Shown here: in pieces, positions 4,304-64,000 of the stretch
Numbering within the stretch: position 1 is the stretch's first letter
Layout of the letters: each line of letters begins with the position of its first letter
Sequence record: MN022785.1
DNA length: 64,000 nucleotides
Origin: Escherichia phage VEc20
Direction: 5' to 3' (one strand)
Made by a program: the position numbers and the translations under genes
The notes under the pieces: model-generated
The model's input: the letters and a program-made list of their open reading frames with translations, nothing else
The model's database searches: none
What the model was told of the DNA's origin: nothing

Positions 4304-4379
4304 TGGTCGAGGCAGTAGGGATCGAACCTACGACCTAGGACTTAGAAGGTCCTTGCTCTTCCTTCTGAGCTATGCCCCG
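4304..4379 (-). tRNA. tRNA-Arg (anticodon TCT)
   Basis: hand-folded cloverleaf: acceptor CGGGGCA/TGCCTCG, anticodon loop CTTCTAA, T-arm GTAGG-TTCGATC-CCTAC, CCA encoded. Confidence 0.85.
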
Positions 4380-4383
4380 TAAT

Positions 4384-4459
4384 TGGGGTGACCGATGGGA
4401 GTCGAACCCATGACTACGAGAATCACAATCTCGAGTTCTACCAACTGAACTACGGCCAC
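4384..4459 (-). tRNA. tRNA-His (anticodon GTG)
   Basis: acceptor GTGGCCG/CGGTCAC, anticodon stem CGAGA/TCTCG loop TTGTGAT, T-arm ATGGG-TTCGACT-CCCAT, CCA encoded; no encoded G-1. Confidence 0.7.
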
Positions 4460-4573
4460 ATTAATACCTACTCCAACAATCAAGATGTCTTCACACGAAA
4501 TTAAGAGAAGAGTGATCAGTTCAACCCCTATAATCGCGTCAAGTAGATATTAATGTGACAGTTGTCACAAATT

Positions 4574-4648
4574 TGGCGGACGTGATAGGATTCGAACCTA
4601 TAACCAATCGCTTAACAGGCGATCGCTCTGCCATTGAGCTACACATCC
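4574..4648 (-). tRNA. tRNA-Asn (anticodon GTT)
   Basis: acceptor GGATGTG/CACGTCC, anticodon stem ATCGC/GCGAT loop CTGTTAA, T-arm ATAGG-TTCGAAT-CCTAT, CCA encoded. Confidence 0.8.
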
Positions 4649-4652
4649 AAAT

Positions 4653-4739
4653 TGGTGGGGAGTGGTGGAGTCGAACCACCCGAGTCGCAATGACAATGAA
4701 TTTACAGTCCACACCGCTACATCTACGGGATAACTCCCC
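4653..4739 (-). tRNA. tRNA-Tyr (anticodon GTA), class II with long variable arm; D-arm fold uncertain
   Basis: acceptor GGGGAGT/ACTCCCC perfect, T-arm GGTGG-TTCGACT-CCACC, anticodon loop CTGTAAA with G-U-containing stem, 87 nt. Confidence 0.55.
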
Positions 4740-4748
4740 AAATTAATT

Positions 4749-4823
4749 TGGTGGCCCTGGGTGGAATTGAACCACCATCTGGCGATTATGAGTCGCTTGC
4801 TTGAACCTTCCAGCTACAGGGCC
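4749..4823 (-). tRNA. tRNA with anticodon CAT (Met-type; probably the T4-like lysidine-modified tRNA-Ile)
   Basis: acceptor GGCCCTG/CAGGGCC, anticodon loop CTCATAA, T-arm GGTGG-TTCAATT-CCACC, CCA encoded. Confidence 0.8.
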
Positions 4824-4824
4824 T

Positions 4825-4900
4825 TGGTGCTGATTGACGGAATCGAACCGCCGACCTTCTCATTACAAGTGAGTTGCTCTACCTACTGAGCTAAATCAGC
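4825..4900 (-). tRNA. tRNA-Thr (anticodon TGT)
   Basis: acceptor GCTGATT/AATCAGC, D-arm GCTC-AGTAGGTA-GAGC, anticodon loop CTTGTAA, T-arm GGCGG-TTCGATT-CCGTC. Confidence 0.85.
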
Positions 4901-4905
4901 AAAAC

Positions 4906-4995
4906 TGGCGGAGGCGATAGGATTTGAACCTATGAGTCGCCGGAGCGACTGCCGGTTTTCAAGACCGGTGCATTAAACCACTCTGCCACGCCTCC
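4906..4995 (-). tRNA. tRNA-Ser (anticodon TGA), class II
   Basis: acceptor GGAGGCG/CGCCTCC, anticodon stem CCGGT/ACCGG loop CTTGAAA, long variable arm, T-arm ATAGG-TTCAAAT-CCTAT. Confidence 0.85.
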
Positions 4996-4997
4996 AG

Positions 4998-5071
4998 TCT
5001 CCGTGGCAGGATTTGAACCTACGACATTCTGCTCCCAAAGCAGACGCTCTACCAAACTGAGCTACACGGAG
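4998..5071 (-). tRNA. tRNA-Pro (anticodon TGG); CCA not encoded
   Basis: acceptor CTCCGTG/CACGGAG, anticodon stem TCTGC/GCAGA loop TTTGGGA, T-arm GTAGG-TTCAAAT-CCTGC. Confidence 0.8.
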
Positions 5072-5081
5072 TAAATTAAAT

Positions 5082-5155
<74 letters not shown>

Positions 5156-5160
5156 AAATT

Positions 5161-5247
5161 TGGTGCGAGAAGTGGGACTCGAACCCACAAGGAAATCATT
5201 CCGCAGCATTTTAAGTGCTGTGCCTTTACCAATTTGACCATTCTCGC
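5161..5247 (-). tRNA. tRNA-Leu (anticodon TAA), class II
   Basis: acceptor GCGAGAA/TTCTCGC, anticodon stem CAGCA/TGCTG loop CTTAAAA, T-arm GTGGG-TTCGAGT-CCCAC, 87 nt. Confidence 0.85.
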
Positions 5248-5248
5248 G

Positions 5249-5321
5249 CTGGGAATAAAGGACTCGAACCTTTGCATCTAGCAGTCAAAGTGCTATGCCT
5301 TACCAACTTGGCTAATTCCCA
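5249..5321 (-). tRNA. tRNA-Gln (anticodon TTG); CCA not encoded
   Basis: acceptor TGGGAAT/ATTCCCA (U1-A72), anticodon stem TAGCA/TGCTA loop CTTTGAC, T-arm AAAGG-TTCGAGT-CCTTT. Confidence 0.8.
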
Positions 5322-62627: not shown

Positions 62628-62960
62628 TTATTTTACTACTTTCCAATGCTGCATGTCAAGTTTACCAACTTTTTTCATCTTCTCAATTAAGCGTTCGGCA
62701 CGTTGGCGAGCTGTAACATAATACCATTCACCTAATTCATTTTGTTCAATTTTTCCAACGATTACTGTATTCAATTCATAAATCCAACCAGTAAAGAAAT
62801 TATGAACTTGAATTGTAAAGGTGAAATCTGTTCCCATACCTTCTGTTGTTTCTACTTCAATAATATCACCTTCAACTGCCATTAAGAACCACATAGTTTC
62901 ATCATATTTACCATTGAAGCATTTAGTTTTAACTGCAGCGTTCAGATTAATCGTTTTCAT
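62628..62960 (-). CDS. hypothetical protein
   Basis: 110 aa; AAGGAG RBS; early promoter candidate upstream. Confidence 0.6.
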   Translation of the reverse strand: MKTINLNAAVKTKCFNGKYDETMWFLMAVEGDIIEVETTEGMGTDFTFTIQVHNFFTGWIYELNTVIVGKIEQNELGEWYYVTARQRAERLIEKMKKVGKLDMQHWKVVK

Positions 62961-62987
62961 TTTATTCTCCTTTGTTTGTGTAAGATA

Positions 62988-63016
62988 ATACTATCACAAA
63001 GGAACCATACTGTAAA
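62988..63016 (-). promoter_or_regulatory. sigma70-like early promoter candidate (-35 TTTACA, 17-nt spacer, -10 TAGTAT)
   Basis: same architecture as the ip-locus modules. Confidence 0.5.
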
Positions 63017-63037
63017 CAACTTTATGCAATCTTTGGA

Positions 63038-63065
63038 AAATAAAAAAGGACTCCCGAAGGAGTCC
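63038..63065 (-). terminator. rho-independent terminator
   Basis: minus-strand hairpin GGACTCC-TTCG-GGAGTCC followed by TTTTTTATTTT. Confidence 0.65.
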
Positions 63066-63070
63066 TCAAC

Positions 63071-63247
63071 TTATGCTTTCTGCTTACCAAAACGAGAAGC
63101 ATCATCTCGAAGAACCGCACGTGCTCGGCGCATGATCTTCTCAACAGTTTGATTGATACGAGAGTTCGACCCACGCTTGTAGCCAGCGCGTTTAGAATCA
63201 CCAACTTTCTTTTCAACTGCTTTCTTTGCTTTAGCTTGTTTTGCCAT
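63071..63247 (-). CDS. small basic protein (58 aa; T4 30.9 position)
   Basis: start MAKQAKAKK with AAGAGAA RBS (ORF track start 63289 is an extension). Confidence 0.5.
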   Translation of the reverse strand: MAKQAKAKKAVEKKVGDSKRAGYKRGSNSRINQTVEKIMRRARAVLRDDASRFGKQKA

Positions 63248-63645
63248 TATAAATTCTCTTTTAAATGAAAATGCAGGACTTATTGGCATTGCCTGCGCAA
63301 GCCCTCAAGGGGAACATAGGTTTTTGGATATTTAACGACCAGGATAACCATAAACCCGTCATCATACCTTATAGCTCTTATCTGTTGCACACCGTTAGCT
63401 TAAAGGTTCCGGGTTCGATTTCTCGAGGATAAGATATATACTGATGGATATATAGGCCTTGAGGCGTACTCCCGATTGGCCATCACCTCGGGGTAGCATG
63501 CACTTGCCGCTATAAGAATAACATTCAAGAGGTACACCGTAAAACTGCCGGGGTCTTAAAACTATAATGATTCGCAAATCATTAATCAGACAGTTCGACG
63601 GCTCCTCGATTTTAGCTCACACTAAGGCAGTGAATCTCCAGTAAA

Positions 63646-63894
63646 TTACTTCAGTGTTACCACAAAGTGACGAACTGCTTTTCGTGCAGCAGAAGCCAAA
63701 GGCTTAGCATATTTAAGTTCATCTTTTTCCTGAAGCTCAGCAGCTAATGCAGTTTGAGCAGGATTCAGATGTTTGAAATAACGCAGGATTTCAAGAGCTT
63801 CGGCTTCAACATCAATAGATGCGCCATAGTTTTCGTGACCATTATTCCATGCGTTTCGTTGCAGTTCAAGAGCGTGTTGTAATTGTTTAATCAT
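63646..63894 (-). CDS. rIII: rIII-like lysis-inhibition accessory protein
   Basis: 82 aa, the length of T4 rIII, upstream of the 30.x cluster. Confidence 0.5.
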   Translation of the reverse strand: MIKQLQHALELQRNAWNNGHENYGASIDVEAEALEILRYFKHLNPAQTALAAELQEKDELKYAKPLASAARKAVRHFVVTLK

Positions 63895-64000
63895 TTAAAA
63901 ATTCTCGTTAGAGATTAAAACTCGGTAGTCACGTTCTTCTGAATTTCATCTTCTTTCGACAGATCTCTCAGTTGTAGACTACCACATAGAATTGTTCGGT

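Follow-up and report, generated by a model that had tools for sequence, protein, structure and literature searches.

The window considered here is a 64,000-nt stretch of the genome of Escherichia phage VEc20 (sequence record MN022785.1), a T4-type phage with 99-100% identity to slur03, Lutter and T4 across the rIII-30.9 region, and the spacer between rIII and 30.9 holds a 149-nt element, referred to below as the core, which is almost certainly a genuine conserved structured RNA. Its helices carry compensatory changes above controls and its strand is defined, being the minus strand that carries all the local genes in the order gene 31, rIII, spacer, 30.9, terminator and 30.8. A preliminary description of this DNA had seen in 63290-63645 a GC-rich non-coding island that could be a structured RNA, a decayed tRNA, an intron remnant or a regulatory region; the first of these suggestions is now strongly supported, by covariation across genera, and the cues that led to it turn out to have been misread. 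The core would seem to be an RNA family not described before, carried as a cassette.

The fold was derived from two alignments. In the first (A3) 22 non-redundant copies were aligned with MAFFT, and the RNAalifold consensus comprises eight helices with 44 pairs in all, of which 20 show compensatory double changes; 98.3% of the cells pair, none of 500 shuffles attained the observed values and sliding the partners by 1-3 columns reduced pairing to 26-42%. In the second (A5) 39 copies, 33 of them distinct, were aligned by a covariance model, R1, and amongst the distinct copies 99.3% of the cells are paired, with compensatory change at 23 of 48 pairs, the kissing loop described below included. Run against the window R1 gives a single match of 185 bits (E 3e-41), with no second one anywhere, the tRNA cluster at 4304-5321 included. 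The closing helix P1 was modelled as 63509-63513 with 63371-63375 (5 pairs), its outer 3 pairs having been read by eye, and compensatory change is seen in four of the five modelled pairs, the helix being UAUAAUC/GAUUGUA in Erwinia phage Cronus and UAAAC/GUUUA in Klebsiella phages.

Helices P1, P2, P5 and P6 abut without linker nucleotides in what would be a four-way junction, although as P2 is invariant this four-way character is deduced rather than proven. A screen of the unpaired columns for Watson-Crick covariation found a further contact, between the first position of the P3 loop and one position in the loop of P5, which vary together as G-C (29 sequences), A-U (2) and U-A (2). The two loops read GAUG/CAUC in most members, AAUG/CAUU in Cronus and UAUG/CAUA in the loci labelled L071 and L073, and phage EcS1 (L030) lengthens the kissing helix to CAAUGA/UCAUUG. 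As these four pairs lie outside the covariance model they are independent evidence for the fold. In three dimensions the P2-P3 arm would fold back at the conserved internal loop, AAGUGCAU opposite CUCAAG, so as to lay P3 over P2 and bring its tip to the tip of the 7-pair P5. A competing small hairpin, GCC-UCAA-GGC, is contradicted by column 58, which covaries with column 23 in P3, and a K-turn in the internal loop was discarded by eye since the sequence is off consensus.

G.U pairs make up 71 of the 1451 paired cells and would be A.C mismatches on the plus strand, among them a U.G pair that closes P5 in 31 of 33 sequences, and the loop of P7 is mostly of the GNRA type (GAAA in 23, UAAA in 5, GUAA in 3 and other in 2). 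The G.U pairs and the P7 loop together place the RNA on the minus strand, the transcription strand of rIII and 30.9 and the opposite of that on which the preliminary description had placed a T-loop-like sequence. That sequence, GGTTCGATT at 63412, is present where it was reported, but it lies on the plus, non-RNA strand, and its complement makes up the 3' half of P7 and the start of P8. Invariant columns are more frequent among unpaired than among paired positions (62% vs 45%), and GCUAACGGUGNGCAACAGAUA is unchanged in all members; such an excess of invariant unpaired columns is typical of RNAs that make tertiary or ligand contacts through loops and junctions.

The other motifs that had been listed are likewise present at their places and read differently in the light of the fold. 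What was taken for a direct repeat of GATATATA separated by six nucleotides (63433 and 63447) does occur, and is really the two arms of hairpin P5, which look like a repeat because UAUAUA is self-complementary. The supposed long-range complementary motifs, CCTCAAGG at 63303 and CCTTGAGG at 63457, are also found, but the complementarity of CCUCAAGG and CCUUGAGG is at chance level, with about one 8-nt complementary pair expected in 356 nt by our estimate, and is not kept in homologues: in EK29 the core side is CCUUAUGG with C2 unchanged, and in PEi20 C2 is CCUCGAGG. C2, which contains CCTCAAGG, is a hairpin of its own and not half of a long-range helix. The proposed decayed tRNA has no support from ARAGORN, which finds 11 tRNAs at 4304-5321 and none at the element, or from tRNA and tmRNA models, which give no match at E<=10. 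An intron remnant fares no better, with no Intron_gpI or Intron_gpII match at E<=10 and no interrupted gene; the element lies in a spacer and the empty site of T4 joins no reading frame.

The non-coding nature of 63290-63645 is borne out, as it holds only short open reading frames (ORFs) with no credible gene among them. A 60-aa minus-strand ORF (63395-63577) was rejected as a small protein gene because its frame is not conserved among homologues and T4 deletes its middle through the missing 155 bp; within its span L070, L022 and L073 are shifted in frame by a net +1/-1, and its upstream part is absent in other genera. Substitutions within the core fall as compensatory pairs and do not follow a codon pattern. 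A 34-aa minus-strand ORF (63261-63365, MMTGLWLSW...) starts at the conserved AUGAUG of the slot 3' border and overlaps hairpins C1 and C2; it too was rejected as a gene, for GGUUAUCC sits in another reading frame in Klebsiella phages, which places the conservation at the level of RNA rather than protein. A 55-aa plus-strand ORF is judged spurious because it is antisense to the transcription unit. The claim of a GC-rich island holds in part: 63290-63645 is 44.4% G+C and the core 45.8%, against a mean of 36.0% (standard deviation 4.0) for 356-nt segments of the window, of which 4% attain the G+C of 63290-63645. However the flanking genes are also above this mean (30.9 at 44.6% and rIII at 40.6%) and the island is therefore less marked than had been described.

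The core is found in 407 phage records, one copy in each and between rIII and 30.9 in the loci inspected, the carriers being about 400 T4-like phages of Enterobacterales, with slur03, Lutter and JS98 among them, and one phage of the Grimontviridae. Identity across the block that T4 lacks is 93-96% in T4-like phages of Klebsiella, Enterobacter, Citrobacter, Raoultella and Edwardsiella and 80-85% in Cronus and Aeromonas phage PS49. For Klebsiella phage phi1, Edwardsiella phage PEi20 and Citrobacter phage Moon, identity is 71-74% for rIII and 76-79% for 30.9, so that the core is more strongly conserved than the genes beside it. Within the T4-type contigs the rIII protein is 100% identical. Amongst the rIII loci of IMG/VR 15 of 40 carry the core, with scores of 122-187 bits, and the other 25 have no match even at E<=1; relaxed two-gap pattern scans of IMG/VR for further members or contexts returned the same T4-like genomes only.

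Comparison with T4, as the preliminary description had suggested, is informative: the flanks match at 99.2% on both sides and the structured core is absent, 63366-63520 (155 bp) being replaced by 'GA'. Three states of the slot bounded by CUCUUGAAUGU and UAUGAUGACG are seen in Tequatrovirus and Mosigvirus: empty as in T4, filled by the core as here, or occupied by an unrelated 45-nt hairpin, Y, in EL, AV117 and L053. There is no duplication at the T4 junction, nor at that of the PKM phages described next. Recombination at the conserved borders of the slot is the proposed route by which the core, moving as a cassette, would come, go or give way to another insert.

The copy outside the T4-like phages is in PKM.Lu.22.1, a 76-kb phage of the Grimontviridae, where the core is 84.5% identical and has its own version of P1, CAAACAGC/GCUGUUUG. 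This copy begins 8 nt past the stop codon of a gene that reads as SSB-like, to judge from the acidic C-terminal tail of its product, and lies 45 nt upstream of an intrinsic terminator which is followed by a sigma-factor gene, the RNA having the sense of both flanking genes. In the sister phage PKM.Hi.22.6 the flanks are 98% identical and six nucleotides stand in place of the core, such that the terminator exists without the core too. Homologues of gp30.9 were found only in records named as T4-like and none in the Grimontviridae: PKM.Lu.22.1 has the core without a 30.9 homologue, and T4 has 30.9 without the core. The RNA accordingly depends on no fixed neighbour, be it 30.9, rIII or another, which argues against a leader or riboswitch of 30.9 and for a self-contained function; a ribonucleoprotein formed with gp30.9 was rejected on the same two phages.

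No sigma-70-like promoter and no T4 late promoter (TATAAATA) was found inside the rIII-30.9 spacer, and no promoter-like or terminator-like site within 63290-63645. With no promoter inside it, the spacer would be transcribed on the minus strand within the rIII-to-30.9 message. Two sub-threshold Rfam matches at 63032-63115, to Atu_C8 (31 bits, where the gathering score is 50) and to Phe_leader, both stem from the terminator hairpin that follows 30.9 and membership of either family was rejected. The features of the locus are collected in the table.

Features of the rIII-30.9 locus in the window, listed in the direction of transcription; compensatory counts for P6, P7 and P8 are from alignment A5
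Feature	Coordinates	Strand	Details
rIII	63646-63894	-	82 aa; upstream neighbour of core, RNA co-oriented
rIII-30.9 spacer	63248-63645	-	398 nt; 63290-63645 is most of it
Upstream spacer 'A'	63521-63645	-	99% identical to T4
X hairpin	63617-63633	-	stem covaries UCAC/GUGA, UCGC/GCGG, UUGC/GCAG
GGAG-loop hairpin	63595-63610	-	just downstream of rIII; shared with T4
AU-rich UGCG hairpin, then U run	63562-63587	-	in spacer A
Cassette slot 5' border	63521-63531	-	CUCUUGAAUGU; in spacer A
Core structured RNA, P1 to P1	63368-63516	-	149 nt; inside T4-missing block 63366-63520
P1	63509-63516 / 63368-63375	-	closing helix; 5' strand CUUAUAGC, 3' strand GCUAUAAG
Arm P2-P3	63455-63508	-	P2, internal loop, P3, loop GAUG
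P2	63506-63508 / 63455-63457	-	invariant GGC/GCC; 3 pairs, inferred only
Conserved internal loop	63498-63505 / 63458-63463	-	AAGUGCAU opposite CUCAAG; between P2 and P3
P3	63485-63497 / 63464-63480	-	13 pairs, 7/13 compensatory
P3 loop	63481-63484	-	GAUG; kissing partner of CAUC
Hairpin P5	63448-63454 / 63435-63441	-	hairpin 63435-63454; 4/7 pairs compensatory
P5 loop	63443-63446	-	CAUC; kisses P3 loop GAUG
3' domain P6/P7/P8	63376-63434	-	mostly GNRA loop; invariant junction and loop nucleotides
P6	63428-63434 / 63376-63382	-	4/7 pairs compensatory
P7	63423-63426 / 63415-63418	-	GAAA loop 63419-63422; 2/4 compensatory
P8	63410-63414 / 63389-63394	-	conserved loop GAACCUUUAAGCUAA 63395-63409; 1/5 compensatory
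Junction GCAACA	63383-63388	-	invariant; P6/P7/P8 three-way junction
Downstream spacer	63296-63366	-	slot 3' border, C1, C2
Slot 3' border	63355-63366	-	UAUGAUGACGGG
Hairpin C1	63337-63360	-	loop UAUGGUUAU; tail 63319-63336; stem covaries GAC..GUC, GUC..GAC, GUGG..CCAC
Hairpin C2 and CUUGCG	63296-63312	-	CCC/GGG stem kept, loop variable; then invariant CUUG
5' leader of 30.9	63248-63295	-	identical in T4
Leader hairpin GCAGG..CCUGC	63273-63296	-	within 30.9 leader, starts at 63296
Ribosome-binding stretch	63254-63260	-	purine-rich AAGAGAA; in 30.9 leader
30.9	63071-63247	-	58 aa, basic; downstream neighbour; phrog_1427, function-unknown family
Intrinsic terminator after 30.9	63046-63067	-	hairpin GAGGACUCCUUCGGGAGUCCUUUUUU

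Outside the core the island is pieced together from small hairpin modules, which T4-type phages shuffle in a hyperplastic region. The order is rIII-X-S-core-C1-C2-30.9 in the window, JS98 and VR26, rIII-...-C1-X-core-C2-(Z)-30.9 in the Klebsiella phages and PEi20, rIII-core-C1-C2 in Moon, rIII-C2-core-C1 in EcS1 and PS49 and C1-core-C2 in L071 and L073. The immediate flanks of the core are consequently S and C1 in the window, X and C2 in the Klebsiella phages, C2 and C1 in EcS1 and PS49, the rIII stop codon and C1 in Moon, and C1 and C2 in L071 and L073; with neighbours that differ in this way between genera, the core is an autonomous cassette and not a leader of 30.9. C1 and C2 themselves are kept across all the T4-like genera examined, with or without the core, and are found on either side of it.

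Several observations on these modules can be added. Copies of X (GGUGAUUCGCUACCUUAAGUGCGGCUUGAA, about 30 nt; L020 1365-1395 and L087 about 513-545) in VR26-type T4-like phages and in the PKM phages of the Grimontviridae, compared by eye, agree but for 1 of about 31 positions, and X lies 5' of the core in the Klebsiella phages and 3' of it in PKM. Module Z, another shuffled leader module, is the stretch between C2 and 30.9 in Moon and the Klebsiella phages, and 48 nt upstream of rIII in the window (63930-63977) are 85-92% identical to it. Hairpin Y, the replacement of the core, has a loop, AAAAGGUUA, resembling the C1 loop UAUGGUUAU, a likeness which, being one of sequence, hints at a possible shared binding partner. 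The GGAG-loop hairpin is a putative RegB cleavage site which, given the specificity of RegB, could split rIII from what lies downstream. Finally, the tRNA array of phi92 (L002, NC_023693, 2859-3206), which is not T4-like, holds the 3' end of rIII and the whole rIII-30.9 spacer, equivalent to window 63239-63730 minus the core and 97-99% identical to the T4 type; the copy has a circularly permuted order and 16 nt duplicated at its ends, a layout that integration of a mini-circle would yield, and the 43-aa 'rIII' annotated there is a fragment.

As to what the core does, there is in our judgement an even chance that it is a self-contained folded RNA which persists and binds one specific partner, in an accessory and probably host-directed function; this is a model built on its form and distribution. 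It would act at the level of RNA, the function of the fold being independent of its neighbours, and would persist as a stable RNA either inside the message or cut out of it. The partner would be a host or phage protein or a small ligand, and the function would be an accessory one that T4 does without; the core is dispensable, as T4 shows by its absence. Several points weigh against this reading or against the fold beneath it. A single sequence folds only modestly better than its shuffles (z = -1.8), P2, the basis of the four-way junction, is invariant and so has no support from covariation, and A5 was fitted to the model, although the MAFFT-based A3 agrees with it. Owing to kinship among the sampled sequences, many compensatory cells go back to shared ancestors and do not count as independent events. 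The stable species of about 150 nt and its partner are predicted only, and a ribozyme or a cis-acting antiterminator would fit the same facts equally well.

Of these, a self-cleaving ribozyme or processing element, with an active site formed by the internal loop and junction that would cut the rIII-30.9 (or ssb-sigma) transcript and uncouple the messages, is by analogy an unlikely but coherent candidate. Its architecture is compatible, in that covarying helices meet in a junction, two loops kiss and nucleotides of the internal loop and junction are invariant, and the element is intergenic, co-oriented with the genes, patchy and phage-borne. Small ribozymes occur in phages in just such an intergenic and patchy fashion, and the size of the core and its junction-plus-kissing-loop layout recall the VS and hairpin ribozymes. 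However no known family matches even at E<=10, 149 nt exceeds most small self-cleavers and no cleavage-site signature is identifiable. An orientation-dependent, neighbour-independent element that always lies in an operon upstream of an intrinsic terminator could also be a processive antiterminator acting in cis, or a transcript stabiliser, which would modify the elongating polymerase or block exonucleases and so give read-through or protect the upstream message, and hyperplastic regions of T4-type phages are rich in promoter-terminator cassettes (PMC2839356, PMC4122927). This analogy is distinctly improbable, given that the core resembles neither put nor EAR nor any other antitermination RNA in the catalogue, that the terminator of the PKM phages pre-dates or exists without the core, and that a simple stabiliser would need no invariant loops.

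A cis-regulatory leader that controls translation of 30.9, either as a riboswitch or as the operator of a protein (gp30.9, for instance), would account for the position of the core upstream of this small basic protein in all T4-like carriers and for unpaired nucleotides conserved in the manner of an aptamer. We hold it to be very unlikely: the core lies at widely differing distances from the 30.9 start codon, with very different modules in between, no expression platform was found to be conserved, the same leader serves to express 30.9 in T4 and many relatives that have no core, and in PKM.Lu.22.1 the core occurs without 30.9. It is scarcely credible that the structure is incidental to a DNA-level element, such as a repeat resembling a miniature inverted-repeat transposable element (MITE), a recombination site or a single-stranded DNA structure, or to decaying junk. 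P1 does provide terminal inverted repeats, presence or absence is precise in two phage families and the spacer has moved between phages, as the phi92 copy attests. Yet a conserved interior with ends that vary compensatorily is the reverse of a MITE recognised by a transposase and largely refutes the idea, there is one copy per genome, the G.U pairs and GNRA loops are strand-specific, and 93-96% identity across genera excludes junk.

Beyond the reading of the core as a persistent RNA with a specific partner, it may tentatively be suggested, as a possibility on the doubtful side, that it represents a functional RNA class so far unseen and working by its own mechanism (a new self-cleaving ribozyme, or an RNA-only device such as a decoy or sponge for a host defence or RNA-binding protein, or an antiterminator that modifies the polymerase), passed as a plug-in cassette between unrelated phages of Enterobacterales and overlooked because T4 lost the core. 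That the core is a strong candidate for a new functional RNA class is indicated by its kissing loop, multi-way junction, invariant junction nucleotides, tight conservation, autonomy and copy in an unrelated family. T4-type phages are among the best-studied of viruses, and still this 149-nt RNA is annotated in none of the records inspected; where the match lies, the sampled phage records list 'none' or 'hypothetical protein' as the feature. Since the flanks of natural carriers and non-carriers agree at 99%, knock-in and knock-out genetics in T4 and slur03-type phages would be straightforward. It was also seen that the RNA is overlaid in Klebsiella phage records by three or four tiny 'hypothetical proteins' (e.g. 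L003 1891-2253), and that 30.9 is labelled '1,4-alpha-glucan branching enzyme, GH-13-type' in several records, such as OR352947 (L025 980-1159), MZ170040 and LR597660, an evident annotation error for a basic protein of 58 aa.

The covariance-model scan that the preliminary description had called for was run permissively with Rfam 15 (cmscan, E<=10) on window 62900-64000 and on the loci holding four divergent homologues, and no riboswitch, ribozyme, small RNA or other family overlaps the element. By BLAST there is no match in 5,426 complete E. coli genomes (E<=10) or in 72,556 plasmids. A host origin or mimicry of a host RNA was set aside on these negatives, a lone bacterial 19-mer, in a GC-rich metagenome-assembled genome, being a chance hit; a 9-nt identity to helix 27 of 16S rRNA is expected by chance and was dropped. 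Full-text literature searches with sequence strings and keywords returned nothing on the element.

Amongst known systems, the lysine and purine riboswitch aptamers and the VS and hairpin ribozymes are built around a multi-helix junction with arms joined by a loop-loop kiss and invariant nucleotides in junctions and internal loops. The core shares this junction-plus-kissing-loop principle with no Rfam match at E<=10 to any of them, and unlike the lysine and purine riboswitches it has no conserved downstream gene class or expression platform: the downstream sequence and its spacing vary, and the gene that follows is 30.9 in T4-like phages and, past a terminator, a sigma factor in PKM.Lu.22.1. 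Nor does it resemble a MITE, given that P1 varies compensatorily around a conserved interior, that it occupies one place per record and that there is no target duplication. The put RNA of HK022 and other antitermination RNAs are likewise orientation-dependent cassettes that act in cis in phage operons upstream of terminators, but put is two simple hairpins of about 70 nt with no similarity to the core in sequence or structure. ROOL and GOLLD are also complex, covariation-supported folds of phages and prophages with no assigned function; both have Rfam entries, without a match here, and are 4-5 times the size of the core.

Within T4 itself the nearest parallels are rnaC and rnaD (species 1 and 2), likewise phage-encoded and non-coding, which a passage of PMC12685909 citing Miller 2003 describes as RNAs of about 120-140 nt that are conserved in T4-type phages and whose function has been unresolved for decades. 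They differ from the core in that they sit in the tRNA cluster, are present in T4 and have no sequence similarity to it. PeSL (early promoter, stem-loop) cassettes consist of a sigma-70 early promoter and a G/C stem-loop terminator, occur in many copies per genome and mediate insertions, deletions and replacements among close relatives, with mini-circle intermediates (PMC2839356, PMC4122927). As the core has neither promoter nor terminator and is single-copy, it is not a PeSL, and its 48-pair fold with tertiary contacts sets it further apart. What it has in common with them is that both are small non-coding modules of T4-type hyperplastic regions, and mini-circles fit the permuted spacer copy of phi92; the core widens the cassette shuffling known for such regions from ORFans and promoter-terminator units to structured RNA payloads.

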